From the NCBI GenBank assembly GCA_963665325.3, contig CAXXWS020000003.1, positions 192,001-256,000 of the forward strand: 64,000 bases of DNA, given 5' to 3'. How positions within the stretch are numbered: position 1 is the first letter of the stretch; the number at the start of each line of letters is the position of its first letter. The stretch is from Alphaproteobacteria bacterium (GTDB taxonomy: Bacteria; Pseudomonadota; Alphaproteobacteria; Bin95). Under the pieces are notes generated by a model that worked only from the letters and a program-made list of their open reading frames with translations, did not search any database and was not told the DNA's origin. Positions 1 to 34,200 of the stretch are shown in pieces. A program made the translations under genes and the position numbers.

Positions 1-33
1 ACCCTGGAGGGGGGCGGGCAGGCGCACCGGTTC

Positions 34-10632: not shown

Positions 10633-10678
10633 CGAATCTTACAGTCTGCCAGTCACCGGCGGAACTCTATGCAGTAAA

Positions 10679-11035
10679 TCACCGGTCATCGCGGTTTCTT
10701 GCCGGATTCCTGGTCGAATCGCCTCGCGCCATTTGCCGATCTAACGAGTGGGGCGGCTGCAATACGAACCCGATATGCGTGTCGTGAAAAGCCGGGAGGT
10801 TCCAACGCTTGGCTAATGTGGCGTCGCGTCTGTTCAAGGGACGCGAAACTGCCGCTAAAGCGCGCGGCGATCCGACGGTGCATGCCGGCCAATGCTCTCC
10901 GTTTCGGGCTCGCGACGCGGTTGGCGCCAATGCTCCCTTTGCCATCTCTGAAACGGCTCCCTTCAGGACGTCAATATTGACCTTCCCCAGCCCCATGGAC
11001 TTCTTCACATTTGACAATCGCTGCACCGAGAGGAC
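10679..11035 (-). pseudogene. Degenerate ABC ATP-binding protein
   Basis: LSNVKKSMGLGKVNIDVLKG...HIGFVLQ aligns with the N-terminus of 4739-5461; Walker A lost and C-terminal half absent. Confidence 0.7.
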
Positions 11036-11041
11036 CTTCGC

Positions 11042-13674: not shown

Positions 13675-16600
13675 CTACCAGCGCAGCGCGCCGCGCAGCA
13701 TCACGCCGTGCTCGGCCTTGCCGGCTCCGTTGTCATTGGCTGCCTCGTGGCGGGTGGCCTCGACGCCCAGCGAGAACGAACGCAGCCGCTCCGATGAGAA
13801 CCGCCAGCCGAGGCGCCAGTCACGCGCCCCGGCATCGCCGAACCCGAAGCCCGCATAGGGCGTGCCGGTCAGGCCGTCCGACAGGGACAGACCATAGCCG
13901 AGTTCCGTGTCGAGGCGTACGCCCGGCTGCTCCCTGTCGCCGTCCCCGGCCAACCCGCCGGGCGCCGCATCCCACAGCCGCCCGGCCTGGTCCCGGGCGC
14001 CCCATGACGGCGTCATCGACAGCGACAGCCCGCGGCCCGACGCACCCGGAACCATCCGCAGCGAACCGCTCGCTCCCCATTCGTCGTAGCCGCCCGCCTC
14101 ATGCGCCGCCAGGCCGTAGAGGCGAAGGTCCGAGGTCAGACCGGCTGCCGGCGCGGACCATGTGAGCCCGGCGCCCACCTCCACGCCCGAACCCGTCTCC
14201 GCATCGCCGCCGTCATGGCGCAACCCGAGCGACAGCGACGGCGCCAGCGCCCCGCCGTCCGCCAGCGCGAACGCCCGCGACCCTTCCAATACGGCCCGCA
14301 CGCGGCTTGCATCGCCCGTCGCAGCCCCGAGATTGCCGACACCGGGCGTCGATACCCGCGCCGACACGCTCCGCACGAAGAACGCATCCGTCTTCAGCGC
14401 CAGCGCAAGCCCGCCATCGGCCCCGGGACGCAGCAGCTCTGCGCGCCCGCCCGCGGCCGCAAGCTGCACGGCGATGTCCGCCGTCTGCCATCCGTCGCCC
14501 CGCGAGAGCGACATGGAGCCGCTCCCCGAACCGACCACGCTCCAGAACGACAGCCGCTCGCCCGCCTGCACGTGCATATAGGGCGTAACCATCGAGAGCG
14601 CGCCCTCGATGTCGTATTGCAGACCCGTTTGATCGAACGCCGCGCTACCCTTCTCGACGCTCCGCGACAGCGCCACTCCGACCAGAAGCCTGTCCCGCTC
14701 CCAGTCCATGCCGAGCACGCCGGTCGCCGTCTCGCTCGTAAACGACAGCCCGCCGCCAGACGAACTGCTCGACCCGCCCGACAGCACCTTGCCCCAGCCG
14801 GTCATCGCGCCCCCCAGGCCCGACGCCTCGCCGGTCGTGAAGTGGAACGAACTCCCGAGCAGAAGATCGCGCCCCGTAACCGGCTGCGCCGGCGCCAAGG
14901 CGACGGCCTCGTTCCAGGATCCGCCGATCCCGTGCCGCGCGAACCGGTCGTCGTCGTTCGCCACCGGCGCACCCGGCGCGCCCGGCGCGCCGAACGTCCG
15001 CGCAAGCCCCGTCATCGTCTCCGCCAGCGCCTTGTCGTCGCCGATCCGCGAGAGGTCCATGCTCTGGCCCGCCACCGTCATCGTCATGCGCGGCGAGGCG
15101 TCCGACCCGATGGCGAAGCGCCCCTCCAGAGCCTGGATTGTCTGGAGGGCCACCGTGCGCCCGAAGCGCGAGAGCCACATCTTCTGGAGCGGATCCGAGT
15201 TCGTGATGGTCCCTGTGGCCGTGGCGTCGGAGAGCCACGCCCCCGACGGGTTCGACAGCGTCAGCGTCAGCGTCTCGCCGTCGTCGTCATGGGCGTCGTC
15301 GAGCACCGGCACCGACACCGTCTTCGACGTCTCGCCAGCCGCGAAGCTGAGCGTGCCCGACGCCGCCGTGTAGTCGTCGCCCGCTACCGCCGTCACGTCC
15401 GACGTGGCGTAGTCCACCGTCACCGTGCCCGACGCCGCGCGCGACAGCTCGACCGTAAAGGCCAGCGACGCGTTCAGGCCCTCGTCCGCCTCCGCGTCCT
15501 GAACCGCAAGCGAAGGTGGGCCCTGGATCGTGGCCGTCACCGGCCCCGTGAGCGAACGTCCGCCGCTCGCGCACACCGCGCCCGGCTGGCCGCAGGCCGG
15601 CAGCGGCGTCGCCAACGCCAGCGTCACCGCTGCGTTGCCCGACGGCTCGATCGTCAGCTCGAAACCCTGCTCCGAGCCCTGCTCGGTGCGCTTCGCGCGC
15701 TCGATCCTGCCGCCGCTCACCGTGAACAGGCTGTCGCGCACTGTCCGGAAGCCCACCCTCTCCGGCTCCTCGCTGAACGCGAGCTTCAGCGTGAACGTGC
15801 CCGACCCGTCATGCTCGGTCGGCACGTTCTCGAACGACGCCGTGAGCGGCGTCACCGTCGGACCCGCGATCTCCGCGCTCGCCGCGGCCGACAGCTTGAG
15901 TCCCCCGGCCGCGCAGATGGCACCGGTCCCATTGCACGCGCCGGTGGTCGCCGGCAGGTGCACCGTCACCGGACCGGACCCGGAGGGCTCTACGCGGATC
16001 TCCCACAGATCGCTCCGACCGTCCACACGCCTCGCGCCAGTCACCGCCCCGCCGGTCACAGAGAACGCCTCGTCGCGCAGCACTCGGAAGCCGGTCACGA
16101 TCGCCTCGCTGAATTGCAGGCGCAGCGTGATGGTGCTGCCGGCCCCGGAATGGGCATTGGGAACGACCGGCCAGCTCGCCGTCAATGGCCCCTCCGCAGC
16201 CGGCCGGGTGACCTTCGTGACGCCGGGATGGTCAAGCGCCACCGTGGGTCCGTTGAGGCTGCGGATTTCGCCGCCGTTCGTGGAAAGACTGTCGGCCACC
16301 AGGGCGACCTTGCGAAGCGGACTCTGCGCCGTCGTCACCACGTGCTCGAGCACCAGCCGGTACGCGCCCGAAACCCCGGAAAACGACGCTCTCGCCTCGG
16401 TCTCCCGATCGCCGAGCTTCAGCGTGACACCTGGAATGCCGTTGGTTGTCGTCACCGTGATTCGTTCATCGAACTCGAGTGTCACGCGGATACGCTCTCC
16501 GGTCGTCCACTCGCCGTTGCCGTCGTCGTCATCCAGGACTTGTGCAGTAGTCACTCTGGATCGGACTTCGACCTCCGGGCTGGAGCTGTCGCAATCGGTG

Positions 16601-19600
16601 GCGTCGGATGTATCGCGCCGGAATTCGGCGGACGCCAGATTGCCCGCCGCGGTGACGGCATGGGTCACCGCGGCGGCCGGGACACTCACCGTCACGGGCT
16701 GGCCCCACGTGGTGGGCGTGACCCGCACCCGGTAGCCCAGCATACGGTCGTACGGTCGATCGACGAGGTATGCCGTGGCATTGGCGAGGATGACGTCGTC
16801 GCCCGGATCGAATCCCTGCACGGGCTCGTAATGAAGGATTCCGTCGCGCCTCGTCGTGAAGCCGATGGTGACAAAGAAGGAACCCTGTTCGTCCGCGGTC
16901 GTCGCCGGATCGTCGAAGTCGCGGCAAACCGGGTCCGGCACCGGCGTGTCGCCGGACAATCCGCTGTCTCCCGCGCGCACCACTGTCCGGTGCGGCCTGG
17001 ACAGATCGACCGACACAGCGTAGGCGTCGTTCGAGACGACCCAGCTACCGCCGTTGCGTGCGCGCATTCGCAGGGCATAGCGCTGATTCCCGATCACCGA
17101 CAGGACGCGGTAGCCGAGGCCGTCCACGCATTCGACATCGGAAGAGCCGGTCCCCATGGGCTGCCAATGCGTGCTGTCCCAATCGATCGGGCTCGAGGGA
17201 TCGACGGCGATCATCTTCATCCCGATATCGCGCAACGCGCTCGCCTGCACACCGTCGGGCTTCCAGCAAACGTCGATCGCCGTACCGCCCTGCGCTGTGT
17301 CCCGAGGGGACAGCCCGATTGCGGTCAGCCCCGTCGCTTCGGTCGTGACTTCGGCTGCCACCGCAGCCGACGGCGGGCTCGCGCCGTTCGCTCCGATGGC
17401 CGACACGCGGTAGTGACGCGTCTCGCCGGTGTTCAGGCCCGAACGATGCACGTAGACGGTGTCGGCGCTGCCGGTATCGCCTTCCACCTCGGCCCATACG
17501 GCACCTCCGTCGTAGGATGCTTCGATCCTGTAGCCCAGAACGGCACCCGGCGGCGCCGTCCAGCGCAGCGTGACCCGCCCCGCGGTCGCCGCGACGCTGT
17601 CGATGACGACTCGACCCGGATTTGGCGACGCCGGCTCGTCGTCCAGGACCGTCACCGACAGGTCCATTCTCTCCGAGCCGTAGCCCCCGCCCGAGGCGAC
17701 GTGCGTCAGCGCCGCGGTGTCGTTCGTCGAATCGGCATCATGGCCCGCCGTCACCTCCACCGTCTGCGCTTCATCCCAGTTCGACGGGGTGAAGGTCAGG
17801 TTCGTCCTGTCGAGCTCCAGCTCCGTCGCCGCCGTCCCCGCGATCGTCACCGTCACCATCGCCGTCGGCTCCGACCTCAGCGCCACCGTGTAGCTTCGGC
17901 TCTCGCCCTCATCGACCGCCAGCGACGACGAGCCGATCGCCAGACCCCGCTCGTCGTCGTCCACGATCGTCAGCGTCGTCCCCATGACCGTCAGCCCCAC
18001 CGTCGCCGTCATTCCCGACATCGTCAGCATCTCGTCGGCCTCGGCCACGTCGTCGGGCGTCGGTGTCAGCGTGAATGTTGCCGTTCCCGAGGTCTGTCCG
18101 GCTGGAATGGTGAGCGTCAGATCGTTCACCGTCGCGTAGTCCGTTCCCTCCGCCGCGGCGTCACCGCTCGCGCCTACCGAGACCGTCAACACCGTGTCCG
18201 TTGCGTGGGAGGAATTGTTCAGGGTTCCCGTCACGGTCACGGTGGTCGCGGCTGCGTCCTCGGCCACAACCGACGGGGTCGTCGACAGGCTCACCGTCGT
18301 CGAGACGATCTCGTCGTCGTTCACGGTCACCGGGACGTCGTCCGCCTCCACCGAGGCATAGTCCGCGCCCGAGACCGCGTGCGTCACGGTCGCCGTGTCA
18401 TTCTCCGGATCATCGTCTTGGGCCGCCGACACCGTCACCGTCTTTACGTCGTTCCAGTCGTCGGTCGTGAAGGTCAACGTCGCGGGCGACACCGTGACGT
18501 CCACGTTGTCGCTCACCGCCGGCGTCACCGTCACCGTCCCGGTGGGCCGGGTGCCGAGCCTGATGTGGTAACGACCCGAATCTCCTTCGTCGATCGCGAG
18601 CGAATCGGCGCCAATCAGCACTCTCGCGTCATCCGGGGGCGTCAGGCTTCCGTCCACCTTGTGGTCGGACACATTCCTCAGCGACCCGTGAGCGAGTGAA
18701 GCGTTCGTGCCATCAGCATCGCGAATGGTCCCTCGGCGGAGCTTGAGAGAATTGACATTGATGGTGATGCCGTCGTCGTCCGCGTCGCCGCTCTGTACCG
18801 TGTAGCGGAACACCAGTGTGTCGGTTCCGCTGCCGTCGGCGTAGTCTAGGAACGGCTTGGAGACCGATCCCGAGCCCGTCGACCGAAGCGAAAACCTCAA
18901 CCGGGGCGTGCCGCCGCCAGTGTCCACGTAGACCGCCTTGCTGAACCGGACGCTCGCCTCGATCGTCTCACCCGCCCCGTAGGTGCCGACCCCCGCGGCA
19001 GGTATCGAGGACGGGGAGACCCCGCCCGCGACGATGACCGGCCGCGCGGCATTGATCGCATGGCCGGCCTGCGAAGAAAGCGCCACAGTGGAGTACGACT
19101 CGCGATCGACCTCGGCCGCGATGGCGTCGTTTACTTCCCTTCGCGTGATCATCCCGCCGTTCAGCGACAAGGCCGAGGAGGTCGCCATGGGCCCAAGGGG
19201 GGCATAGTCGCCGGTGGTCACCGCGTAGTCGAAAAGCGCGGTCCTGTCGCCTGACATGCCGCTGTAGGTGGCATTCGCGGTCAGGCCCGCGTGCAGGTAG
19301 AAGCGAAACGTCGGCATGCCGCCATCGGTCACGAACCGAACGTCCCGGTCGAAGGTCACCGCGAAGCGAATCGTCTCGCCCGTGGCGTAGCTGCGGCCGC
19401 TCGTCGGGGTCGAAGCGACACTCGTGCCGGCCACGAGCGGCGCGACATGCACCTTGTGCGCCGACCTGTTCGTCAAGGCGTCATGCGACAATTCCGCATT
19501 CTTGCCGTTCGATGTGCCCGTGATCGACCCGGCATTCAGCGCCAGGCTGCTTGCCACGACGCCGACCCCGTCATGATCGTAGTCACCCGCCCCGACCTCG

Positions 19601-20822
19601 TAGGAGAACACCAGGTCCGTCGTCGTGCTCTCGGAGGCGACGTAGCTCGCTTTCCTGGTCTCGTTAAGCTGGAGTTCGATTTGCGGCGTGCCGGCGACCG
19701 TGACGGCCCTCGAGAATCTCAGTCGGATCTTGATGTCGTCTCCGGCCACATACTCGCTGTCTGCGCCGGCCTGCGAGATGATGGCAACCCCGTCCGCAAC
19801 GATTTTCGGCGGCGTGTCGGGATCCACCGCCGCCTCCACCGTCACCGTGTAGGGCGCACTCGCCGCGGCGTTCCAGTCCGCCGACGCCGCCGCCGACGCC
19901 GTCACCGGGCACGACCCCACCCCCACCAGCGTCAGCACCCCGGTCGACGCCGCCACCGAGCACACCCCCGACGCCGAGGCCGGCACCGAGTAGCTCACCA
20001 CCGTCTCGGCACCGCTCGGCGCCGTCACCGTCGGCGCGCTCGCGCCCAACGTCACCGTCGACGCGCTGTAGGCGAACCCCGACAGGTCCTGCTCCCCCTT
20101 CGCCACCGCCGGGAACGTGATGTCCACCGCCGCCGGGTTGCCCGCCGCGTCGAGCACCGTCACCACCGCCTCCGACGCGGACGCGGACGCCGCCGTCGGC
20201 GTGCCCGACACCACCCCCGTCGACGCCGCGATGGCCAGCCCCGCCGGCAACCCCGACGCCTCATACCCGGCGATGTCCGCACCGTCCGTCGGGCTCAGCG
20301 CCGCCATCGCCTCGCCCACCTGCAGCGCCGCCGGCGCCACATATGTCGGCGCCGTCGGACCGCTCAGGTCCACAACCACCGTGCGCGTCACATCCGCCGA
20401 CGTGTACCCCGACTTCTGCGCCGACACCGTCACCGTCACGCTCGCGCCCGTCACATAGGACGCGTCCGCCGGCACCCGCACCGACCACCGCGCCGCACCC
20501 GACACATCCGCCGACGTCGCCGTCAGCGTCGTCCCGCCAATCTCAACCTCCACGCCCGCACCCGTCACCGTGCCCGTGCCGCCCGAAATCGCGAACCCAG
20601 ACGCCTTCTCCGCGATGTTCACCGTGTCGTCGCCCGCCACCTTGTCGACCGTCAGCTCCAGCGACGGCGGCGTCTCGTCGTCGGCGAGCCCGAGCGTCGT
20701 CCCGGTCACCGTGAGATCGTCCTCGCGGCCCGACACCGCGATCGTCTCGGCCCCCTCGTAGACAGCGTCGTCGGTCGGCGTCAGCGTGAACGTCGCCTCG
20801 CCCGTCGGCGCGCCGGCGGCGA
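13675..20822 (-). pseudogene. 3' part of a giant adhesin (Ig-like, Calx-beta and FN3 domains, C-terminal autotransporter-like beta-barrel), separated from its 5' part by a transposon
   Basis: Continues the 621-aa repeat of the 5' part; Calx-beta motif VTVDYATSDVTAVAGDDY; FN3 motif LRWTAP...YRVSAI; barrel region ending VMLRGALRW. Confidence 0.88.
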
Positions 20823-21068
20823 TGAGTGTGCTCTCGGTATCTGATGGCGGGATGGTCACGTTGTTCGATGGTTTTCAGGCGTCGGGCCGGGCGTGACGGC
20901 GGGGGTGTCGGACGGCCGTCGGCGCGTCAAGCCGCTTCGCGGCTCCTGCGCTGCGCTCCGGCCCTTCGGGTGACCCGCCGCCGTCCCTCCGACGGAGTGC
21001 ATCCATGGCCGTAAGCAAGCTTCCGGCCACGGGCCGGCCGCTTTACGCAGTGTGACAATGGGAGCGGT

Positions 21069-21129
21069 GTTACCCGTTACCGTTACCCTCTCTCCCTAGG
21101 GGTTCGAGGCGGTAACGGTTTTCGGTAAC
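21069..21129. repeat. GTTACC x3 facing GGTAAC x2 (iteron- or origin-like)
   Basis: GTTACC at 21069, 21076 and 21082; GGTAAC at 21111 and 21124; they flank the stop codon of the AAA_25 gene. Confidence 0.6.
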
Positions 21130-22094
21130 GTGTCCCTGCGGTCGTTGCCGTTGAGGGCGGCGAGGCGGTATCCGCCTTCGGATGCGCGCTCGACGCGTCC
21201 TTCGCGGACGAGCCTGTGCAGCGCCTCGGCGACGGTTGCGGGCCGGGTTGCCGCGCGCTCGCGGATCCGGCGCTGGGAGAGCGGCGCGTCGGCGTCGGCG
21301 AGGGCCTGCAGGATGCGCCGTTCGGGGGTATCCGGCTCCGGCGCCTGGTCTTCCGGCGTCTCGCGCAACCGCAGGGCGGGGCGCTCGTCGTCGTCGGCGA
21401 GTTCGATCTCGAGGTCTTCGAGGCCAGGGGCGTCGCGATGCTCGACGGTCATGAGGATCTGGCGGTCTCGCCGGCGCAGGTACAGATTCGAATCGCCCCA
21501 GGCGTGAAGTTCGCTGCTGCCGCGCAGCGCCTGCCCGGGCCGGGAGCCGCCGCTCTTTCGTGCGTGATGGACGAGGAGGACGGCGGTTTCGAAGCGGCGC
21601 TGTATGTCGCGCAGGAAGCCCAGCATGGGGGCGACCTCGGCGACGGTATTTTCGTCGACGCCGTGCAGGCGCACGAGGGGGTCGAGGACGACGAGGCGGG
21701 GTGAGACGCGCTCCACCGTCTCGACCAGGCGCTGGCGATCGGCGCGATGGTCGAGACGCAGCGTGGGCACGTCGATGACGGCGATGTCGAGGGTCTCGAA
21801 CGCGGTGCCTGCCGCCTTTGCGATGCCCTGGAGGCGTGCGCGCACGATATGGCCGGCGTCCTCGGCGGCGAACAGCAGCACGGGGCCGCTTGCGGCGGGA
21901 CGGAAGTGGCGCAGGCAGGGGACGCCGGCGGCGACCGCGACGGCGATGTCGAGTGCGAGGAAGGATTTGCCGCACTTGGGCTCGCCGCCGACGATGCCGA
22001 CGCCCTGCTCGGACCACAACGCCTCGACCATCCAGCGGCGCGCCTGGGGGCGCTCTTCGAGCTCCGCCGGCGCCCGTGTCGGGAAGCCCTTCAC
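21096..22094 (-). CDS. AAA_25 / RepA-like (RecA-superfamily) helicase with C-terminal winged helix
   Basis: GTG at 22094 overlapping the upstream TGA (GTGA) with GAGGAGG RBS; Walker A GEPKCGKS; LVVLDPL, LVHHARK and LRGSS motifs. Confidence 0.85.
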   Translation of the reverse strand: MKGFPTRAPAELEERPQARRWMVEALWSEQGVGIVGGEPKCGKSFLALDIAVAVAAGVPCLRHFRPAASGPVLLFAAEDAGHIVRARLQGIAKAAGTAFETLDIAVIDVPTLRLDHRADRQRLVETVERVSPRLVVLDPLVRLHGVDENTVAEVAPMLGFLRDIQRRFETAVLLVHHARKSGGSRPGQALRGSSELHAWGDSNLYLRRRDRQILMTVEHRDAPGLEDLEIELADDDERPALRLRETPEDQAPEPDTPERRILQALADADAPLSQRRIRERAATRPATVAEALHRLVREGRVERASEGGYRLAALNGNDRRDTLPKTVTASNP

Positions 22095-22924
22095 CGCCGC
22101 GCCCTCCTCGGCTTGGCGGGTTCGCCCAGGGTCTCGATGAAGAGCTTCTCGTCGAGGACCTCGCGCTCCTTCTCGGCGGCGGCGGCGAGCAGGGCGTCGG
22201 CCATGACGGTGAGCGCCCGCGGGTTGCCGTCGGCATGGGCGACCAGGGTGTCCTTGAGGCCCGCGGTCATGAGGCCGGGATTGCCGGCCTGCTCGATCAG
22301 ATGGTCGAGCAGGGCCGCGAGGTCGCCGGCCTCGGCCTTGGTCATGACCAGGCGCTGGCGGATGCGCGAGGCGATGGGCTGCAGATCGGGCTGGCGGAGC
22401 TTGTCGAGCAGGCGCGTGTCGCCGGCGAGGACGACCGAGAGGATGGCGCGCGAGTCGAAGTCGGTCGAAGCCAGCAGGCGGATCTCGGAGAACACCGAGG
22501 GCAGCAGCTCCTGGGCCTCGTCGACGAGCACGACGGGGCGCATGCGGGTATCGTCGACATGGGCGAGCCAGCGCTCGCGCAGGCTTTTGAAGCTGGCCCA
22601 GCGGTTGTTGTACATCAGGTCGACGCCGAACATCTCGCCGATCTCGCGGTAGAAGTCGGACAGCCGGGAGGAGGGATGGGTGATGGCGGCGATGCTGAGC
22701 CCCTCGCAGCGGCCGAGACGGTCGGCGAGCAGGCGCAACGCCACACTCTTTCCGGCGCCGGGCTCGCCGGCGATCAAGGCGAAGCCGCCCTGGCGCACCA
22801 GGTGGCGCTCGATCCTGAGGCAGAAGCTGTCGACGGCAGGCGTCGCCATGAGACTGTCGACCGGCAGGTCGGTGGCGAAGGGGTTCCACTTGAGCCCGTA
22901 GAAGGTGAGCAGTTCCCGGTTCAT
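22091..22924 (-). CDS. ExeA/GspA-like AAA ATPase (transposition helper)
   Basis: FYGLKWNPF, Walker A GEPGAGKS, Walker B VVLVDEAQ, GNPR; ATGA overlap with the integrase. Confidence 0.88.
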   Translation of the reverse strand: MNRELLTFYGLKWNPFATDLPVDSLMATPAVDSFCLRIERHLVRQGGFALIAGEPGAGKSVALRLLADRLGRCEGLSIAAITHPSSRLSDFYREIGEMFGVDLMYNNRWASFKSLRERWLAHVDDTRMRPVVLVDEAQELLPSVFSEIRLLASTDFDSRAILSVVLAGDTRLLDKLRQPDLQPIASRIRQRLVMTKAEAGDLAALLDHLIEQAGNPGLMTAGLKDTLVAHADGNPRALTVMADALLAAAAEKEREVLDEKLFIETLGEPAKPRRARR

Positions 22925-24396
22925 GGCGCATCTCCCCGATCTTCGTCCTCGCCCGGACCGGGCGTCTTGTCATGGGGCAGCCAGGCCGGCGGCAGGCCGG
23001 TTGCGGCCTGGGCGTCGAGCATGCCCTTGAGCAGCGGCGGAAGTTCCCCCGTCCCCGCGCCGCCATTGCCATCGTTGCCGCCGGGGCCGGCGGGACGGCG
23101 CACGCCATCGGCGTTGCCGCGCTTGTCGAGGGGGTACAGCGTGCACAGGCGCTCGCCGCCTCGACCGTCGATCAGATCGACGCTGGCGAGGTTCCAGCGC
23201 GCGTAACGGATCCAGGCCTCGCGCAGGTGGCGCCACGGCTGTGGCACCTGGTAGCGGATGCCCTCGACCGAGACGGTGCCGTCCGAGCGCCTGAGCGTGC
23301 GCTTCCTGGTGATGCGGAAGGCCGCCTTGAGCTCGGCCGAGCCGGGGCAGGATCTCGACGCGTCGACGCTCCCGGCCAGGCGTTGATGCGGCGTCATGCC
23401 GAGCTCGCGGTGCTTGCGGCGGTGATAGTCCTGCTCCAGCCAGGCGATGGTGGCGTCGTTGAGCATCTTCAAGGTAAGCGCGTCGACGCCTTCGAGCTGA
23501 GCCATCAGGCGCGATTCGACCGTGCCCCAGAACGACTCGATCTTGCCGTTCTGATGGGGGCTGTAAGCGAGCGTCGTGACCCCCGCGATGCCGAGCCGGT
23601 GCAACCCCTCCTCGACCTCGCCCGCGGTCATCGCCGCGCCGTTGTCGGTCAGCAGGGACCTCGGCAGACCGCGCTTCATGAAGGCCTGGCAAAGGCCGTG
23701 GACGAACACCTCGGCGGTCTCGGCGAGGTACCACTGAAGGTGGCAGCCGAGGCGCGAGTGGTCGTCGAGGAAGCCGAGCAGGATCGGCGTCTTCCACTCG
23801 CCCGAGGCGGTCAGCACGCGACGCTTGGCGCTGTGCATGTCGGCGTGCCACAGGGCGTGAGAGCGCGAGACCTCGTAGCTCAATACCTCGCGGGCTTCGA
23901 CCGCCGGCCTGGCCTCGCTCTCATGCCACTTGCGCCGGCGCTTGCGTACCAGCCCGCGAGCCCGCATCGCCCGGGTCAGCGTCGCGTAGGACGGTATCGG
24001 GCCGAGCTCGGGATCGGCCTCGACCCGCGCGGCCAGATTCTCGTGATGAAGCTGCGCCGACCACGACGGATGCGCCCGGTACTGCTCGTGCAGCGCCTCG
24101 ATCAGCGTCGGCGACATCGCGCGCGGGCGCCCGGCATCGGCGCGCGGGCGCCGCTTGAGCGCCCCCACCGGATCGTTGTCCGCCGCCCGCGCCTGGTAGT
24201 ACCAGCGCTCGATCGTGGACACCGCGAAGCGCACCCGGCCCTTGCCGGACGGGTGATCCCACTCGCGTTCGGCAAGCCGCTCAAGCTCGGCGTGCAGCCG
24301 CCCCGCCGGCGGCGGCGAGGCCAGAAGCGGCCCGACCACCGCGAAGCGCAACCGCGCCCACCGGTCGCGACGCTCGCTCCCGTCGTTGCTGTTCAT
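22921..24396 (-). CDS. DDE integrase/transposase (rve core, Mu-transposase-like C-terminus)
   Basis: N-terminal HTH (STIERWY); LWHAD, LLTDNGAAM and NGKIESFW catalytic motifs; RTLRRSDGTVSVEGIRY. Confidence 0.9.
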   Translation of the reverse strand: MNSNDGSERRDRWARLRFAVVGPLLASPPPAGRLHAELERLAEREWDHPSGKGRVRFAVSTIERWYYQARAADNDPVGALKRRPRADAGRPRAMSPTLIEALHEQYRAHPSWSAQLHHENLAARVEADPELGPIPSYATLTRAMRARGLVRKRRRKWHESEARPAVEAREVLSYEVSRSHALWHADMHSAKRRVLTASGEWKTPILLGFLDDHSRLGCHLQWYLAETAEVFVHGLCQAFMKRGLPRSLLTDNGAAMTAGEVEEGLHRLGIAGVTTLAYSPHQNGKIESFWGTVESRLMAQLEGVDALTLKMLNDATIAWLEQDYHRRKHRELGMTPHQRLAGSVDASRSCPGSAELKAAFRITRKRTLRRSDGTVSVEGIRYQVPQPWRHLREAWIRYARWNLASVDLIDGRGGERLCTLYPLDKRGNADGVRRPAGPGGNDGNGGAGTGELPPLLKGMLDAQAATGLPPAWLPHDKTPGPGEDEDRGDAP

Positions 24397-24444
24397 TCCG
24401 GCATCCCCCTCGCTGCTTCGTGGAGGTGCCGATGATGCGGTGCC

Positions 24445-25059
24445 CTATCCGTGCATCATAGAAACGCTTTCTGCGGGCGAAGCCGGACCTGCGCCGAGCG
24501 CGCAAAAGCCGGTCCACGGCATCAGCCAGACCAGGCTCCGCAGCAGCCGCGAGCGGAAGCCACGGCCCCGCATGATGCGCAGCAGCCGGCGCAGCGGCGC
24601 CTCTTCGGGCGGCGCCGCCAGCTCGCCCCGTCTCGCCTGCCACTCCCGGGTCAGCGGGAAGGCTTCCAGCCACCAGCGCCGCCAGCGCTTCAGCGTCGAG
24701 GCCGGAACCCCGCACCGCCGCGCGATCGTCTGCAACCGCGCGCCGCCGGCCACAGCCAGCGCACTCACCACAAGGAACAGCGCCCCGACGTAAAAGCGCC
24801 TGCCGAAGAAACGCACCGACGGCGGCTTCACGCGGCGTCGGCACACCGAACAGCACAGGCTGAAGCGCCGAACGTCGTTCCGAAGATTCGCCGCCAGACC
24901 GTGCGGCTTGCGCGGGTAGCTCGCGCTGTGAAGCGCGCCGCCGCAGCGCGGGCAACCCGCCGCCCGGCACGCCTCCGCCTCGGCCGCGTCGACCTGCTTC
25001 AGAAAATCCCAAACCCGGGCGTTGGAGAGATTGGAGTGCCGGAACAGCTTGTGCGACAT
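24445..25059 (-). CDS. Zn-finger/HTH protein (DUF6431-like) leading the transposon operon
   Basis: CPRCGG...CCSVCRRR...PPSVRF; HTH GVPASTLKRWRRWW. Confidence 0.75.
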   Translation of the reverse strand: MSHKLFRHSNLSNARVWDFLKQVDAAEAEACRAAGCPRCGGALHSASYPRKPHGLAANLRNDVRRFSLCCSVCRRRVKPPSVRFFGRRFYVGALFLVVSALAVAGGARLQTIARRCGVPASTLKRWRRWWLEAFPLTREWQARRGELAAPPEEAPLRRLLRIMRGRGFRSRLLRSLVWLMPWTGFCALGAGPASPAESVSMMHG

Positions 25060-25206
25060 TGGGGCCGTCTCAGGTTGATGTCACTGTCACCGAGACAAGC
25101 CCTCCGGCGGCCTTCTTGCAAGATCGCCGGGGGGCACCCAATCCAAAACCTCGATTAATCCGAGCCGATCAGCCCCTGATCGCCGCTGAAAGCCTGCGCC
25201 CGCTCA

Positions 25207-28200
25207 GCGATGGTCAGCGACAGCGCCCCGACCGTCGCGTAATCGGTGCCCTCGGTCGCGGTGTCCGACGCCGACCCGACCGCGACCGTCACGCTGGTGG
25301 CGCTCGCGCGCGGCGCGTGGTCCAGCGTGCCCGTCACCGTCACCACCGTCGCACCGGCGTCCTCGTCGACACTCGTCGGCTCGACCGACAGCGCCACCGC
25401 CGTCGACGCCGTCTCGTCGTCGTCGACCGTCACCTCGACCGCGGCCACCGTCACCGACCCGTAGTCGCCCCCCGAGACAGCGTGCGTAACCCGCCCGCTG
25501 TCCGCGTCCCCGTCCGGGTCGTGCTTCGCGCTCACCGTCACCGTGCGCGCCATGTTCCAGTTCGACGGCGTGAACGTCACCGTCGCCGGCGCCACCGACA
25601 GGTCGGCATTGCTCTGCGCCGACGGCGTCACCGTCACATCGCCCGTGGGCTCGGAGGCCAGCACCAGGGTGTAGGTCGCGGAGCTGCCCTCCGGCACCCC
25701 CAGCGTCGCGACGCTCGGCGTGACGCCGCGCACATCGTCCTCGCCGATCGTCAGCGTCGCGCCCGTCACGCCCAGCCCGGTGACCGTCGTGGCTCCCGTC
25801 ACCGACACCGTCTCGTCGCCCTCGTCCACCGCGTCGTCGCTCGGCGTCAGCGTGAACGTCCCCGTGTGCGACACGCTGCCGGCCGGAATGGTCAGCGTGA
25901 AGTCGTCCACCGCCGTGAAATCCGTCCCCGACGTCGCCGTGTCCGAGCCGACGCTCACCGTCACCGGCGTCGCCGCGTCACGGACGCCCGCATCCAGCGA
26001 CGCCGTCACCGTCACCACCGTCGCGCCGGCGTCCTCCGCCACCGTCGTGGGAGCAAGCCCCAGCGACACCGTCGTCGAGGCCGCCTCCACCGTCACCGTG
26101 TAGGGCGCACTCGCCGCGGCGTTCCAGTCCGCCGACGCCGCCGCCGACGCCGTCACCGGGCACGACCCCACCCCCACCAGCGTCAGCACCCCGGTCGACG
26201 CCGCCACCGAGCACACCCCCGACGCCGAGGCCGGCACCGAGTAGCTCACCACCGTCTCGGCACCGCTCGGCGCCGTCACCGTCGGCGCGCTCGCGCCCAA
26301 CGTCACCGTCGACGCGCTGTAGGCGAACCCCGACAGGTCCTGCTCCCCCTTCGCCACCGCCGGGAACGTGATGTCCACCGCCGCCGGGTTGCCCGCCGCG
26401 TCGAGCACCGTCACCACCGCCTCCGACGCGGACGCGGACGCCGCCGTCGGCGTGCCCGACACCACCCCCGTCGACGCCGCGATGGCCAGCCCCGCCGGCA
26501 ACCCCGACGCCTCATACCCGGCGATGTCCGCACCGTCCGTCGGGCTCAGCGCCGCCATCGCCTCGCCCACCTGCAGCGCCGCCGGCGCCACATATGTCGG
26601 CGCCGTCGGACCGCTCAGGTCCACAACCACCGTGCGCGTCACATCCGCCGACGTGTACCCCGACTTCTGCGCCGACACCGTCACCGTCACGCTCGCGCCC
26701 GTCACATAGGACGCGTCCGCCGGCACCCGCACCGACCACCGCGCCGCACCCGACACATCCGCCGACGTCGCCGTCAGCGTCGTCCCGCCAATCTCAACCT
26801 CCACGCCCGCACCCGTCACCGTGCCCGTGCCGCCCGAAATCGCGAACCCAGACGCCTTCTCCGCGATGTTCACCGTGTCGTCGCCCGCCACCTTGTCGAC
26901 CGTCAGCTCCAGCGACGGCGGCGTCTCGTCGTCGGCGAGCCCGAGCGTCGTCCCGGTCACCGTGAGATCGTCCTCGCGGCCCGACACCGCGATCGTCTCG
27001 GCCCCCTCGTAGACAGCGTCGTCGGTCGGCGTCAGCGTGAACGTCGCCTCGCCCGTCGGCGCGCCGGCGGCGATGGTCAGCGACAGCGCCCCGACCGTCG
27101 CGTAATCGGTGCCCTCGGTCGCGGTGTCCGACGCCGACCCGACCGCGACCGTCACGCTGGTGGCGCTCGCGCGCGGCGCGTGGTCCAGCGTGCCCGTCAC
27201 CGTCACCACCGTCGCACCGGCGTCCTCGTCGACACTCGTCGGCTCGACCGACAGCGCCACCGCCGTCGACGCCGTCTCGTCGTCGTCGACCGTCACCTCG
27301 ACCGCGGCCACCGTCACCGACCCGTAGTCGCCCCCCGAGACAGCGTGCGTAACCCGCCCGCTGTCCGCGTCCCCGTCCGGGTCGTGCTTCGCGCTCACCG
27401 TCACCGTGCGCGCCATGTTCCAGTTCGACGGCGTGAACGTCACCGTCGCCGGCGCCACCGACAGGTCGGCATTGCTCTGCGCCGACGGCGTCACCGTCAC
27501 ATCGCCCGTGGGCTCGGAGGCCAGCACCAGGGTGTAGGTCGCGGAGCTGCCCTCCGGCACCCCCAGCGTCGCGACGCTCGGCGTGACGCCGCGCACATCG
27601 TCCTCGCCGATCGTCAGCGTCGCGCCCGTCACGCCCAGCCCGGTGACCGTCGTGGCTCCCGTCACCGACACCGTCTCGTCGCCCTCGTCCACCGCGTCGT
27701 CGCTCGGCGTCAGCGTGAACGTCCCCGTGTGCGACACGCTGCCGGCCGGAATGGTCAGCGTGAAGTCGTCCACCGCCGTGAAATCCGTCCCCGACGTCGC
27801 CGTGTCCGAGCCGACGCTCACCGTCACCGGCGTCGCCGCGTCACGGACGCCCGCATCCAGCGACGCCGTCACCGTCACCACCGTCGCGCCGGCGTCCTCC
27901 GCCACCGTCGTGGGAGCAAGCCCCAGCGACACCGTCGTCGAGGCCGCCTCCACCGTCACCGTGTAGGGCGCACTCGCCGCGGCGTTCCAGTCCGCCGACG
28001 CCGCCGCCGACGCCGTCACCGGGCACGACCCCACCCCCACCAGCGTCAGCACCCCGGTCGACGCCGCCACCGAGCACACCCCCGACGCCGAGGCCGGCAC
28101 CGAGTAGCTCACCACCGTCTCGGCACCGCTCGGCGCCGTCACCGTCGGCGCGCTCGCGCCCAACGTCACCGTCGACGCGCTGTAGGCGAACCCCGACAGG

Positions 28201-31200
28201 TCCTGCTCCCCCTTCGCCACCGCCGGGAACGTGATGTCCACCGCCGCCGGGTTGCCCGCCGCGTCGAGCACCGTCACCACCGCCTCCGACGCGGACGCGG
28301 ACGCCGCCGTCGGCGTGCCCGACACCACCCCCGTCGACGCCGCGATGGCCAGCCCCGCCGGCAACCCCGACGCCTCATACCCGGCGATGTCCGCACCGTC
28401 CGTCGGGCTCAGCGCCGCCATCGCCTCGCCCACCTGCAGCGCCGCCGGCGCCACATATGTCGGCGCCGTCGGACCGCTCAGGTCCACAACCACCGTGCGC
28501 GTCACATCCGCCGACGTGTACCCCGACTTCTGCGCCGACACCGTCACCGTCACGCTCGCGCCCGTCACATAGGACGCGTCCGCCGGCACCCGCACCGACC
28601 ACCGCGCCGCACCCGACACATCCGCCGACGTCGCCGTCAGCGTCGTCCCGCCAATCTCAACCTCCACGCCCGCACCCGTCACCGTGCCCGTGCCGCCCGA
28701 AATCGCGAACCCAGACGCCTTCTCCGCGATGTTCACCGTGTCGTCGCCCGCCACCTTGTCGACCGTCAGCTCCAGCGACGGCGGCGTCTCGTCGTCGGTA
28801 ATCGTCCCGGTTGCCGTCGCCTTCGTTCCCAGCACGGCATTCGACGAGGGGCTCGAGAGCGTCAGCGTGAAGGTCTCGGCGTCTTCGTCGGTGCTGTCGG
28901 CCAGGGTGGAGATCGAGATGGTCGCGCTCGTCTGACCGGCAGCGATGGTCAGCTCCGCATTGCTCGCAGGTGGCGTGTAGTCCGTCTCGGCCGTCGCCGT
29001 CACGTCCGTGGTCGCGTATTGCACGGTCACCGCCGACGAAGCCGGCGGATTGAGGGTCACCGTGAATTCAATCGGACTGCCCTCGGTCGCCGAGGCATCG
29101 GAAACCGTCAGCGTCGGTGTGTCGTCGTCGGTGATGGTGGCCGTGGCCGTCGCGACGCCGATACTGGCGTTGATTGCATTGCTGAGTGTCAGCGTGAAGG
29201 TCTCGGCGGACTCGATGAGGGTATCGTCGGTGATCGCCACCGAGACGGTCTTGCTGGCCGTGTTCGCGCCGATGGACAGGGTGCCGGACACACCGGTGTA
29301 GTCCGAACCGGCGACGGCCGTGCCGTTGGCGGTCGCGTAGTCCACGGTCAGCGCTTCACCGCTCACCACGTCCAGCGCCACCTCGAATACGGCGCTGCCG
29401 GCATTTTCCGACACGGTCAGGTTCCGGACCGAGAGCACCGGCTCGGGACTGTCGTTGCGCACCGCACGGAAGTTTATGTGGCCGGCCTCGTTGCCCCACA
29501 GGTCCTGGATGGGGTTCGTGCCCGGGGTATAGGACACCTTGGTGCCGCCGTAGGCGTGGCCCAGGGCGGAGTCGAGTGTGAGGGTCAGCGTCGCGCCGTC
29601 GATCTCGACGGCCGACACCGTCGCAACGCGTCCGCCCTCCAGGACAACGACGAAGTCGCCGGAATCCGGAACCGAGCCCGGGTCCAGATGCTCGGCAACT
29701 CCGCTCGCGCGTTCGAAGGTGAGCACCAGCGCGGCGCCGTTGACCACCGCGCCCGAGGCATCGCTCACGAGCACCGGCGCGGTGGTGTCCGCCTGGACGC
29801 CGGTGGTGAATTTCCCGTGGCGAAGATTGACCGCCCCATTGGTCGAGTCGCTGATGCTGCCGCCCCTCAGGATCAATCCGCGATCGGTGAGCATCGTGCC
29901 GTCCGAGCCGGCATTGGACGGGACGCTGATTGCGGATTCGGTGCCGGGAACGTCCGTCTGTACCGTCCAGCTGAACTTCAGCGTCGTGCCGCCCGAGCCG
30001 CTGGCATACGCCGCTTCCTGCAGGGCGCCGTCGCTCGCGCTGAACTTCAACGCCGGCGTGCCGCTGCTCGTGTCGACGCTCACCGCCTCGGAAAAGGTGA
30101 CCGTGAACTCGACGACCTCGCCCGCACCGTAATAGCCCGCCGGCGTGCCGACCGACGGGCTCGACGTGACCGCGATACTCGAAATGACCCGTGTGTGGAT
30201 GCTCCCGCCGGTCGCGGCGGCATGACCGATATTGGCAGCGACGGTGGTGTCCTTGTTGAATATGCCGCCGCCGTTCAACTCCAGTGCGTTGGCGGCCACT
30301 GTCACGCCGTCGGTGTCGTCATCGTCCGACTCGGTCACCGATCTGCGAAACACCAGCACCGTATCCGTGCTGGCACTCGCGCTGTAGCTCGCGTAGCTGT
30401 TTGTCGAGGCCGTACCATCGAGTTGCAGCGCCAGCCGCGGCGAGCCGGTCACACCCACCGCCTGGTCGAAGGTCAAGCTCACTTCCACGACATCGCCGAC
30501 GCCGTAATCACCGCCCGATGGCGCGTTGGTGAAGGCGACCCCCGTGATCGTGGCCCTGGCCGAATCGTCGTTCACGATGGTGCCGGTGGCCGTTGCCGTT
30601 CCGATCACGGCGTTCGACGTCGGGTTCGAGAGCGTGACCGTGAAGGTTTCATCCTCCTCATCGATCACATCGTCCCCGGTGACGATGGATATCGTTCCAC
30701 TGGTCTGACCGGCGCCGATCGTCAGGGAGGCGCCGGACGCGGGTGGCGTGAAGTCCGCCCCGTCCGCGTGCATCGTGTCCGAGGTCGCCGTGCCGTCGGT
30801 GGTGGCATATTCGACCGTCACGGCGCCCGAAGCCGCCCGGTCCAGCTTCACCGTGAATTCGACCGCGGCGCCCTCGGTGGCCGAAGCATCCTCGATGGTG
30901 ATCCTGGGCAGTCCGGGCGTGGCCGAGACCTCGTCGGAAGGCGTGCCGTCGGATGACCCGCTTCGCGTGGCAATCACGCGCACCGTGTAGCTCGTACCGT
31001 CGGTGAGAGCGGGGATCATGTGGCTGACGGTCGAGCCTGACGAAACGGTCGCTTGACGGGCGTCGGTCGCCGCATCGGCAAAGGATTCGGCGCCGGATTT
31101 CCATTGCACCTTGTAGCCGCCGGCGCCGGCGACCGCCGACCACCTGACAGTCAATGAACCCTGGTCGGGCGTGGCCGTCACGCCCATCACCTGCGACGGC

Positions 31201-34200
31201 GGACTCTCGTCGTCGGCGATGGTCACCTGCGCGGTACAGCCGTTCGTGCATACGGCCACACCTGGCGGCACCCCGCTGTCGAGAACCAGTACCTCGAAGT
31301 TCTCGTCACCTTCGACATCCGTGTCATCGATCAATTCGAGATCGAGTGCCTTGGTTGCCACGTAACGGTCACCTGAAGCCGCGAAATCTGAGGCCGCGAA
31401 GCGCACTAGCTGCTGTTGTGGAAAGTTGTAGTCCTGAGTTCTCGTGGCGGATCCCGCGTTGCTGCGCACGATGAGTCTCAGGTCCGCCATGTTCGTCGGC
31501 TCGGGCACGCCCGCTGCCGTTTCCGCAACGAGATTGAGCGTCACCGTGCCGGCATTCTCGAGAAAACCGTAGCTGCTGCGGTCAAGGGTGATGTCGAGGG
31601 CCGGATTGGCGGCCACCATGTTGACGGTGGATGAATCGTTGCTGCCGGAATCGTAGCCGACGCCGGATGCGATGGTGGCAGTCAGCGTGCCGTCGGCGTC
31701 AACGCCAGGTCTGAAGTCGTCGAGCCCGAGGGTGAGAGTCGCAGATGCCTGGTTGGCCGGAATGGTTACGGTTTGCGACAGTCTGGAAGCCGTCAGAAAC
31801 TCCTGGCTCTGAGTGAGGGTGACGGCCACCTCGAGCGGTGCGGCGCCGACCGGCGTTCGCGTCACGGTGAAACCCACGTCTTCGAGGACGAAGGGGACGC
31901 GCGAGTCGACACTGGCAATCGAGACGGTCGATGATTCGCGCGTCACCGTCAGGGTGTAGGTGCTCTCGGGCCGGGGCGGTCTTGCCGCCTTGACGGTGAT
32001 TTCGGTCTCATCGGCGCCGAGCGCGACCTGGTGGCCGGCGTCGTTGCTCGCATCGGCGGGCATGATCGATGCGGTCCCGCCGTCTGCCCCGGTCGCCGTC
32101 ACCGTCGCCTTGTCGAGGCTCCCCGTAATCGTCGCCGTGTAGGCTCTGGTCGACCCGGCGAATACGGGCGTCAGGGCAACCTCCGAACCCCCGTAGGAAA
32201 GCTGAAGCGAGCCGAGCAGCGCTGCAGCAAGTGTCTGGTCGCCCCGCACCTTGTGACCTGAGCGCGCGGTCAATCGCGTGCCACCGATATCGGCCTCGCG
32301 CTGGTCCGATACCCCCTTGATGGTCGCCCCGTTCAGCACCAGCGCATTGTCCGGAACGGCGAGGCCGTCGTCGTCCCGGTCCGATGCCACCACGGTGTGC
32401 TCGAAGTTGAGGGTCCGGCTCCCGGTCATGTCCACGTAGGCGAAGGCTCTCTCGACCACCGGGTTCGACGAGTCGAAATTCACCTGGAGCGTGGGGGCGC
32501 CGCCAGTGGTATCGAGTGCGATGTCTGCGGTGAAGGTCACGGCGATGGCGATGCGCTCACCCTGCGCATAGGTGTCGCTGCCGTGCAGCGGCGTGGAAGT
32601 GACCGTCACCTCCTGGATGCTCGGTATGCTTCGATTGACCTGTACCGTCTTGCGTCCCGGGTCCACGCTGTCGTAGCCGCCGCCGGTGCCGGTGTGGGTC
32701 AAGGCAAACGTGCCGCTCGTGCCGGTCACCGGATCCGCGGCGGTCACCGTGACGGTTTGCGCCTGATACCAGGTGTCGGGCGTAAACGTCAGGCTGGTGG
32801 GGCTGGTGGCGAGATTGTCTCCACCGCCGGCAATGGCCACTTCGACATTGCCGGTCGGCCGCCTCTTCAGGCGGACGCGGTAGTCGCCGGACGCGCCTTC
32901 GTCGATCGTGACCGTCGCGGTCGAGAACTTGTAGCCATAGGCGATGTCGTCGTCCTCGACGAACACTGGCAGGGTGACGTCAAGCGCATCGTCGTAGCCA
33001 CCGCCGGAGGCGCTGTGCTTCAGCGAATAGTGCTCTTCGTGGTCGGCGCTCGCGTCGTTGTTCGACCTCACGCTGATCTGCTGCGGCTCATCCCAGTTGT
33101 CGGTGGTGAAGGTCAGCGACGCCGACCGGCCCCCGCTACCGGTTGGAACGGTGCTGCCGACACCGACTCGCAGTCGATTGATGCCACCACCGGCGGCCCG
33201 GCGCGCGATTGCCACCGTCACATCGCCGGTCGGCGCACTTCCCAGCACGACCGTGTAGCTCGAGACGGGCAGCTTGGTTGTCGCGTCTGCCTCCAGGACA
33301 TGCAGGAGGGTCTCGGAAAGCAGGATCGCCGGCGTGGGCGCCATTTCCGTGACCAGTACATCCAGCTTGGCGGTGACCCCCGCGTAGTCGCCTCCGCTCG
33401 CTGTGTAGGTCAGAGCCACCTGATCATCGTCCGAATCGGAAGCGGCGGCCGCAGAGACCGTGACCGTCAGCGGCTGGTCCCACACATCGGGTTCGAACTC
33501 GAGCCGGGTCGGCGTGACCGTGAGGTCGGTGCCCGCATGTCCGGCCAGGTCGAGCGTCACCTTGCCCGTCGGTTTGGTCGCCAATTGGACGGTCCAGGTG
33601 GCGCTCGTGTCTTCGGGCACCGACAGCGAAGAGACCGAGAGTGTGATGTCGGGAACATCATTGTCGCTCAGGGTGACGTCGATATCGGCACTGACCGACC
33701 GATAGTTCCCGCCGCTTGCGCTGTGCGTCAGCGTGGGGTTCCCGCCGGACGCATCGTCATCCTGGGATGCCGTCAGGCTGACGGTCTGGGCCTGGTTCCA
33801 GTCCGACGAGGTGAAGCTCAGCCGGCTCGGGCTCGCGACGATGCCGGAGCTGGCGCCGGCGTCGATCGAGACGGTGACCGCTTCGCTCGGCGCGGTCGCC
33901 AGCGCCACCGTGTAATCCACGGTCTCGCCTTCGGTGATGTCGATGGACGATACCGAGAGGCTGAGCGCAGACGCGTCGTCGTCATAGATGGTCCCCAGCG
34001 CCGCCGACATGGTCCCGAGTTCCGCGTTGGTCGAGGGGTTCGACAGAGTCAGGGTGAAGGTCTCGGGGGTTGCCTCGTCGACGCTGTCCTGCGTCGTCGC
34101 GATGCTGATCGTGCCCGACGTCTCACCCGCGGCAATGGTCAGCGTCGTGCTGTTCACCGCGGTGAAATCCGTGGCGGAAGCCGTATCGGCGGCGGCGATC

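Follow-up and report, generated by a model that had tools for sequence, protein, structure and literature searches.

A transposon of the Tn6049 lineage with a predicted replication-type helicase gene as an apparently integral part

Published accounts of the transposon Tn6049 go back to 2010 (PMC2864759, PMC4739549). It is described as 3.5 kb long, with 12 copies in Cupriavidus metallidurans CH34 and an ATPase gene named 'gspA' (PMC2864759); its repeats are given as imperfect and 12 bp long, accompanied by a direct repeat of 4 bp (PMC4739549), and of its transposition module it is said that it 'could not be categorized' (PMC6210171). Here we describe a 4,384-bp element whose closest named relative, judging by sequence comparison, is Tn6049. 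The element lies in a 64,000-nucleotide stretch of an Alphaproteobacteria bacterium genome (contig CAXXWS020000003.1, positions 192,001 to 256,000), and this whole stretch is referred to below as the window. It has four genes, which we call o1 to o4 and which encode, in this order, a Zn-ribbon/helix-turn-helix (HTH) protein, a DDE transposase, an AAA ATPase and a RecA-fold ATPase predicted to be a helicase. The comparative evidence presented here indicates that the last of them, o4, is an integral and conserved part of the element and not a passenger.

Tn6049, which is known from C. metallidurans CH34 and also from the P. aeruginosa plasmid pHS87a, shares with the window element the order of a small Zn/HTH 'transposase' gene, a gene for an IS481-like DDE protein of about 480 amino acids (aa) and one for a 277-aa AAA ATPase ('gspA'), as well as short imperfect TG...CA terminal repeats, a direct repeat of about 4 bp and many copies per genome. 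Its DDE protein is 50.4% identical to o2 over 94% of the query, and both fall in one tree. Unlike the window element, however, Tn6049 has a 71-aa open reading frame (ORF) in the position of the 332-aa AAA_25 gene. This small ORF lies inside the Tn6049 ends, which we placed in pMOL30 using the published repeats, so delimiting an element of 3,517 bp as against 4,384 bp; the Tn6049 termini read TGTGC..., those of the window element TGAGC.... An earlier reading of the window, made from the sequence alone (the original prediction), had called the element unclassified. This description is apt in that the Tn6049 module has been left uncategorized, but it has to be amended in that a named relative exists, even though that relative has no helicase gene.

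A retroviral-integrase-type DDE transposase, for which o2 is a candidate, is combined with an AAA+ target ATPase in Mu (MuA/MuB), Tn7 (TnsB/TnsC), Tn5053/Tn402 (TniA/TniB) and Tn552, which also resemble the window element in their TG...CA termini, their duplications of about 5 bp and their asymmetric ends with subterminal repeats. These elements differ from ours in that their duplications have a fixed length of 5 bp, whereas they are 4-6 bp for the window element and 3-5 bp for its relatives, and in that the catalytic core of the window element scores best with IS481/IS3 models. In addition, none of the four element proteins has a Pfam or NCBIfam match at E <= 0.01 to TnsA, TniQ/TnsD, a resolvase or Mu-transpos_C. 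To our knowledge, none of Mu, Tn7, Tn5053/Tn402 and Tn552 encodes a RecA-fold replicative helicase; Mu recruits the PriA/DnaB system of its host. With IS21 (IstA/IstB) the element shares a DDE gene followed by a translationally coupled AAA+ ATPase gene, and short duplications of variable length. On the other hand, o3 is an AAA_22 protein with no match to the DnaC-like IstB_IS21 family, the score with the IS21 model is 45.1 bits where 160 would be required, and the window element has two extra genes. The members of the IS481 family are single-gene elements of about 1-1.3 kb. IS481 provides the best-scoring model for o2, and relatives are labelled 'IS481 family transposase' in RefSeq; yet the score (123.9 bits) is below the cut-off of 224, o2 is about 200 aa longer, and the element has four conserved genes instead of one.

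The closest sequence match and the most compact structural match to o4 is the RepA protein of the IncQ plasmid RSF1010. The likeness extends to the relatives of the element that pair o4 with a primase-like protein, as RepA is paired with the RepB' primase; what the IncQ set is known for is priming that does not depend on the host. However, the window element has no RepC-like initiator or oriV, o4 has an extra winged helix, its genes are within a DDE transposon, and the primase-like Toprim/DUF3991 protein of the relatives is, as far as tested, not a homologue of RepB'. We found no description of a DDE transposon with a RepA-like helicase gene or a DUF3991-Toprim gene in the open-access literature, ISfinder and TnCentral being outside this comparison. 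What is new is a DDE/AAA+ transposon of the Tn6049 lineage with a built-in, predicted replication-type helicase and, in relatives, a primase-like gene; the family to which it belongs is widespread and little studied, but not wholly unknown.

The o4 gene and its place in the element family

The o4 protein has the RecA-fold core typical of RepA/DnaB-type ring helicases, including both Walker motifs and the conserved Arg/His motifs. Across 62 sequences there is no variation in Walker A, Walker B, DEN, HHxxK and GQxLRGSS, and AAA_25 is matched with 124.7 bits. The profile match to RSF1010 RepA (1g8y), a hexameric replicative helicase, has an E-value of 2.6e-15. Its AlphaFold model (pLDDT 83.4) matches the folds of DnaB, RadA, KaiC and Rad51, and the most complete fold match is that to RepA 1g8y (TM 0.56 by query and 0.75 by target). 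The PHROG matches of o4 cover the helicase parts of phage primase-helicases, and one o4 relative (42% identical) has a DnaB N-terminal domain. Taken together, sequence and modelled structure suggest that o4 is a replication-type helicase. The GTG start that we assign to o4 is backed by homologues with Met at the same position; the database gene call P0121 (350 aa) places it 18 codons upstream. PADLOC gave no defence match for o1, o2 and o4, and for o3 one short match to mad8 confined to the P-loop. No natural o3-o4 fusions were present in the 10 long o4 relatives that were scanned out of 150 listed.

Two scans in opposite directions address how constantly o4 accompanies the transposition genes. 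In the forward scan, a transposase alignment was used on one genome per species, and the best 80 of 541 confirmed loci were considered. Among these 80 loci picked by o2, 64 carry o4, six have an ORF of about 70 aa in its place, two have something else or nothing, and eight could not be judged. The 64 o4 loci comprise 30 that are intact without a fifth gene, 17 that are intact with a fifth gene, five that are intact but followed by too little sequence to show whether a fifth gene is present, and 12 that are cut by a contig end or an insertion. When counted by distinct transposase sequence (n = 43), the numbers are 30 with o4, six with the small ORF, two with another state and five of unknown state. 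In the reverse scan, an o4 alignment was used on metagenomes, and 80 of 563 confirmed loci were kept. The o3 gene is located immediately upstream of o4 in 72 of these 80 loci (72 of the 73 that are informative), with o2 also present in 55; the remainder consists of seven contigs with less than 300 nt upstream and one with 388 nt upstream and no match. The metagenome rows were picked by o4 and are hence unusable for the frequency of o4, and a sample of 400 genomes of the phylum, in which two have close o4 relatives (E < 1e-70), is too sparse for context statistics.

Copy comparison allowed both ends to be mapped in eight of ten multi-copy relatives, and o4 lies within the ends in all eight. These relatives are 4,355-5,189 bp long, begin with TGAGC or TAAGC and end with GCTCA, and are flanked by duplications of 3-5 bp; of the two that were not mapped, one has a nested insert in o4 and the other is limited by its contig. 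The original prediction had regarded the AAA_25 gene as belonging to the element, with the reservation that it would be a passenger if homologous elements mostly lacked it; most of the relatives carry it, and those whose ends were mapped have it inside them.

The sequence evolution of the genes is in line with these counts. Over 16 pairs, the ratio of non-synonymous to synonymous substitution rates (dN/dS) is 0.11-0.43 for o4, 0.08-0.40 for o2 and 0.07-0.48 for o3. Among 60 elements, the mean identities are 0.58 (o2), 0.59 (o3) and 0.60 (o4), and the Spearman correlations of pairwise identity are 0.77 for o4-o2, 0.79 for o4-o3 and 0.86 for o2-o3, values that are descriptive because the pairs are non-independent. 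All four genes are co-inherited in bacteria of many phyla and are under purifying selection. Close relatives are mosaic: within one pair of elements, the synonymous divergence (dS) of the genes can differ by a factor of 2-3. For a tree of o2, 115 of 163 loci were kept, which collapse to 83 distinct rows (quick IQ-TREE run; midpoint root for drawing only); loci whose o2 match was shorter than 430 residues or contained a stop, and loci without o3, were left out. Helicase-bearing rows are found on either side of the midpoint. The rows with the small ORF, including Tn6049, form one clade (SH-aLRT 99; eight small ORF, one unknown, one o4) that is nested among helicase-bearing rows, and there are at least four changes of the fourth-gene state among rows of known state.

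Outside this family, the locus L168:1003-4502 contains a distant pair of DDE (HTH_28/rve) and AAA_22 genes, about 25% identical to o2 and o3, that is followed by an o4 orthologue with 51% identity. A second, more distant transposon lineage therefore has the helicase module in common with this family.

The fourth gene position and the possible role of o4

In relatives of 5.0-5.2 kb, a fifth gene located right after o4 encodes a protein of 276-289 aa with DUF3991 and Toprim_2 above the Pfam cut-offs and a faint match to the DnaG Toprim domain. Such a gene follows o4 at 17 of the 80 o2-picked loci, all 17 being in the 22-row clade that also holds the window element, and at least five gains or losses of it are needed on the tree. 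The window element itself has no such gene and no remnant of it at its right end, nor is there one in the genome. On the Tn6049 branch, the position of o4 is taken by a protein of about 70 aa whose helical core is conserved and whose acidic tail ends in ...DLFxxFDxIPF, ...PPF or ...DF. The genome's own single-stranded DNA-binding protein (SSB; L211:1339-1818) ends in ...DLDDDIPF. PriA, the chi subunit, RecQ and other proteins dock at the C-terminal tip of SSB, and the acidic tip of the small ORF looks like such a tail, the resemblance being one of a short motif. Because the occupants of the fourth position are a helicase together with a primase-like gene, a helicase alone, or an apparent mimic of the SSB tip, this position points to a replication step, and it has the appearance of an interface with replication whose form differs between members of the family.

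Our favoured interpretation, for which we consider the chances roughly even, is that the element is a DDE transposon of the Tn6049 lineage that is autonomous, has been active recently and has its own replication module. Under this interpretation, o1 and the N-terminal HTH of o2 would recognise the asymmetric ends; o2 would cut at the terminal CA-3' and join the ends to the target with a stagger of 4-5 bp; and o3, in the role of MuB, TniB or TnsC, would capture the target and activate the transposase. The o4 protein, as a RepA/DnaB-like ring ATPase, would then be loaded at the forked strand-transfer (or copy-out) intermediate, and unwinding by o4 would cause the element to be copied rather than moved. 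On the Tn6049 branch, the protein of about 70 aa might recruit the replication-restart proteins of the host instead of a helicase. A more specific form of this proposal, which we put forward tentatively and regard as possible though doubtful, is that the element encodes its own primosome: the helicase, in some members with the Toprim primase-like protein, would initiate copying of the strand-transfer intermediate without recourse to the host's PriA, DnaB/DnaC and DnaG, and on the Tn6049 branch a small SSB-tail mimic that hijacks the host restart machinery would have taken the place of this module.

The replicative DDE transposons that have been studied (Mu, Tn3, IS6/IS26) rely on assembly of the host replisome at the transposition fork, and the 'self-synthesising' transposons (casposons, Polintons, Helitrons) use other chemistries. 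If our interpretation is true, a bacterial DDE/AAA+ family in which a replicative-type helicase is conserved and a primase-like gene is often added represents a new way of handing over from transposition to replication, for the study of which this compact four-gene system would be suitable; if the primosome version holds, it would be a 'self-priming' replicative transposon, and host-independent priming would help to explain the spread of the family over many phyla. It would also give the uncategorised Tn6049 group a testable function and account for a highly invasive element, with 24 copies in the genome, several of them in giant adhesin genes. The original prediction had proposed a replication or unwinding step of the element's own, such as a replicating circular intermediate or replicative transposition. 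The general idea gains weight because of the relatives with DUF3991-Toprim genes and because of the likeness of o4, in fold and sequence, to RSF1010 RepA and DnaB; as to the specific forms, neither a circle joint nor replicative transposition was seen in the contigs compared.

Several points weigh against a replication module. Among the element proteins there is no polymerase, recognisable initiator or resolvase, and this copy is without a primase gene. Every step of the mechanism is inferred. The ends fold ordinarily as single-stranded DNA (z -1.69 left, -1.15 right), so that there is no sign of single-strand initiation hairpins. The likeness of the small ORF to the SSB tail is, as said, one of a short motif. 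Ordinary duplications flank 20 of the 24 copies, and no cointegrate was seen. The identical copies could equally come from a copy-out-paste-in burst that relied on host replication. Moreover, Tn6049, which has no helicase gene, has multiplied to 12 copies in CH34 (PMC2864759); the helicase is therefore not needed for the basic chemistry.

It is also conceivable, but in our view unlikely, that o4 serves transposition in a capacity other than that of a replication helicase. It might select or prepare targets by sensing forks, gaps or single strands in the manner of TnsE, or it might remodel the transpososome in the manner of ClpX, with the winged helix docking it to DNA or to a partner; TnsE selects targets for Tn7, and ClpX dismantles the Mu transpososome. 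The evidence that o4 is integral fits such a role equally well, its fold also matches RecA-fold rings and filaments that are not helicases (KaiC, Rad51), and its winged helix resembles domains of this type that bind protein or DNA. The distribution of the copies can be read in the same sense, since seven of the 24 lie within 120 kb and, if dnaA (C1:1180402) is taken as the origin, 12 of the 14 copies on contig C1 have the same orientation, with their genes head-on; this orientation bias is weak and post hoc and, in view also of the clustering, we have not used it as evidence. However, the GC skew of the genome has no clear replichores, and the four copies on the related complete chromosome OZ220705.1 are, by inspection and assuming that the record starts near the origin, without an orientation pattern. 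Furthermore, both the closest sequence match and the compact structural match of o4 are to a true replicative helicase, RepA, and the Toprim gene beside o4 in 17 loci and the DnaB N-terminal domain of one relative fit replication better. The complex prediction for o3 with o4 (score 0.00 against a mark of 0.32) bears neither way.

Two further explanations have to be weighed. That an excised circle is kept as a short-lived or stable replicon by the helicase (in relatives together with the Toprim protein), making the element a hybrid of transposon and plasmid, is in our opinion improbable. IS3-type elements use circular intermediates, and the pair of a RepA-like helicase and a primase-like protein recalls the replication set of RSF1010. 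The core of the element is IS481/IS3-like, and such families use copy-paste, according to a statement quoted in PMC6794481. Against this, no initiator or iteron-like origin was recognised, the MuB/TniB-like target ATPase suggests direct strand transfer to a captured target, and the end-to-end joint that a circle would have, 25206>20823, is absent among the joints listed from four runs, with the reservation that contigs drop rare forms. Very improbable, finally, is that o4 is cargo unrelated to transposition, benefiting the host or acting in defence or addiction, that became fixed in one branch of the family. Such an origin would suit the variability of the slot (the small ORF in six loci, another or no ORF in two, and a Toprim gene with at least five changes on the tree) and the movement of Tn6049 without o4 (PMC2864759). 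It is at odds, however, with the uniform gene order in 72 of the 73 informative loci picked by o4, with the transposase tree, in which o4 occurs on either side of the midpoint and the small-ORF state is confined to one nested clade, with the o4 orthologue next to the distant core of L168 (25% identity), with the co-divergence and translational coupling of the genes, and with the absence of a match to a defence family.

Copies, insertion sites and further features of the element

The flanks of the window element (the left one ending ...GGCGGCGA, the right one beginning GCGATGGTCAG) can be compared with an intact copy of the target, ...GGCGGCGATGGTCAG..., in the next repeat of the interrupted adhesin gene, and this comparison defines a 4,384-bp insert with TG...CA ends and a 4-bp GCGA duplication. 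The plus strand of the element reads TGAGTG...GCTCA; in gene orientation, its left terminus is TGAGC... at 25206 and its right terminus ...CACTCA at 20823. Besides this copy, 23 further matches in the genome cover query bases 1-4384 exactly, 21 of them with 100% identity and two with 99.98% (one base missing), so that there are 24 copies, 23 of them full and one split by a 2,070-bp insert. Clean duplications flank 20 of the 24 copies (4 bp in nine, 5 bp in nine and 6 bp in two), and two further copies have a 5-bp duplication with one mismatch. The stagger is thus variable, 4-5 bp, since a stagger that was always 4 bp predicts far fewer 5-mers and one that was always 5 bp leaves nine 4-mers unexplained. 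The element is a discrete unit that has recently multiplied without sequence change. The borders, termini, duplication and length given in the original prediction are all upheld by the intact target and the further exact-span matches; the four co-oriented genes with their ATGA and GTGA overlaps are as it claimed, and the copies with their duplications, which it had suggested looking for, establish the four genes as one mobile unit.

In two copies, C2:25283-29666 and C4:930514-934897, the flanks (CCGT, GGTCG) have been exchanged between copies, which is the signature of recombination, or of cointegrate formation, fusion or fission, between two replicon-sized contigs via the element. The insert that splits one copy (C1:2290596-2297053, L209) is an insertion sequence with a DDE_Tnp_1 transposase gene, located just past the helicase stop codon, and four bases are repeated at its joint. 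Relative to the disrupted gene, eight of 22 copies have the same orientation and 14 the opposite one, which gives no pattern.

Public sequence data were available as assembled Logan contigs, not raw reads, and four of 23 runs were compared. Contigs from two of these runs (X4, X5) end precisely at 20823 or 25206. A joint 20818>25207, which skips 4388 (X1, X12), was considered as an empty site and rejected, the adhesin repeat having the same uninterrupted sequence; a joint going back 4978 was attributed to the adhesin tandem repeat. The adhesin frame is open across the site once the element and one duplication are removed (+/-6 kb examined).

All four genes are on the minus strand; in element coordinates, they extend over 148-762 (o1), 811-2286 (o2), 2283-3116 (o3) and 3113-4111 (o4). 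The overlap between o2 and o3 is ATGA and that between o3 and o4 is GTGA, which couples the last three genes. The positions of all features are given in the table below.

Table. Positions of the transposon, its genes and ends, the interrupted adhesin gene, and the variable genes of related loci. Coordinates refer to the window unless a locus name precedes them.
Feature	Position	Strand	Description
Whole element	20823-25206	- (gene strand)	4,384 bp; borders fixed by intact target and copy comparison
Target-site duplication GCGA, copy 1	20819-20822		
Target-site duplication GCGA, copy 2	25207-25210		
Uninterrupted target copy in neighbouring adhesin repeat	27066-27080		GCGA at 27070-27073
o1	24445-25059	-	204 aa; Zn-ribbon CxxC...CCxxC and HTH_23
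o2	22921-24396	-	491 aa; DDE transposase, HTH_32 and rve; conserved C-terminal PLL...GLP tail
o3	22091-22924	-	277 aa; AAA_22 ATPase of the MuB/TniB/ExeA kind
o4	21096-22094	-	332 aa; AAA_25 RecA-fold ATPase (~20-245) and C-terminal winged helix (~255-312)
Left end	25060-25206	-	147 bp, non-coding; terminal TGAGC
Right end	20823-21095	-	273 bp, non-coding; terminal ...CTCA
Downstream part of split giant repeat adhesin/autotransporter-like gene	13675-20859	-	
Upstream part of the same split adhesin gene	25155-35579	-	frame enters the element 52 bases before its stop
DUF3991-Toprim genes	L011:9404-10273; L069:9284-10114; 15 more (L013-L022, L042, L052-L054, L059, L071)		inside element ends
Small ORFs in the helicase slot	L063:3224-3445; L064:2360-2590; L065:3535-3741; L066:3184-3441; L073:4073-4285; L060:3647-3931; L089:6309-6524; L090:6266-6481		

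The first gene, o1, is found upstream of the transposase gene across the family. Its cysteines C36, C39, C70 and C73 are invariant, and it adjoins DUF6431 clusters in the ESM Atlas, while its predicted structure (pLDDT 69.8) matched no PDB entry in Foldseek at E <= 0.001, the best E-value being 0.29. It is probably a DNA-binding or end-recognition factor. In o2, the triad D186, D251 and E287 is invariant in 19 sequences. HTH_32 and rve/rve_3 score just under the Pfam gathering scores (rve 27.4 bits, E 4e-6, against 32.6), and the best NCBIfam model is IS481 (E 8.4e-36), followed by IS3 and IS21. The AAA_22 match of o3 is well defined (72.6 bits against a cut-off of 27), with Walker A at G56-S60 and Walker B at D135-E136. 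Among its other matches are PHROG 296, 'DNA transposition protein' (E 1.4e-23), a weak one to MuB 8xvb (E 0.056) and, as the best in NCBIfam, an ExeA-like PEP-CTERM ATPase model that is under its cut-off.

An alignment of the left ends of eight family members shows conservation of a CTTGCAAGAAG block; the left end also contains an inverted repeat, GTCTC...GAGAC, directly before o1. In the right end, T(T/C)GATGG occurs twice in subterminal position with a spacing of about 26 bp; both repeats are kept across the family and are candidate transposase sites.

The adhesin gene that hosts the element (13675-35579) consists of long, near-identical tandem repeats with a period of about 6.25 kb, and at least six other copies are also located inside open frames of more than 1,500 aa. 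Elsewhere, in one Paracoccaceae metagenome-assembled genome (L045, L046, L055; about 8785-12508), several related copies have an insertion of about 3.7 kb in the helicase gene. No other full member of the family was found in the genome that contains the window, where the search gave fragments only: at C1:445800-452800 (L210), end fragments of a diverged relative and the C-terminus of its o4, with 70-86% identity, flank three consecutive tyrosine-recombinase genes and a reverse-transcriptase gene. The seven clustered copies mentioned above lie within C1:1982775-2101890. The GC skew of this region is unusually strong (0.10-0.15 per 100-200 kb), three SSB paralogues are located there, and the region represents either a hot spot for insertion or a mobile island that tolerates it. 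The genome as a whole is unusually rich in mobile-element replication genes; it has 23 above-cut-off matches to the Pfam SSB family, and a search for DnaA returned many IstB-like ATPase matches.

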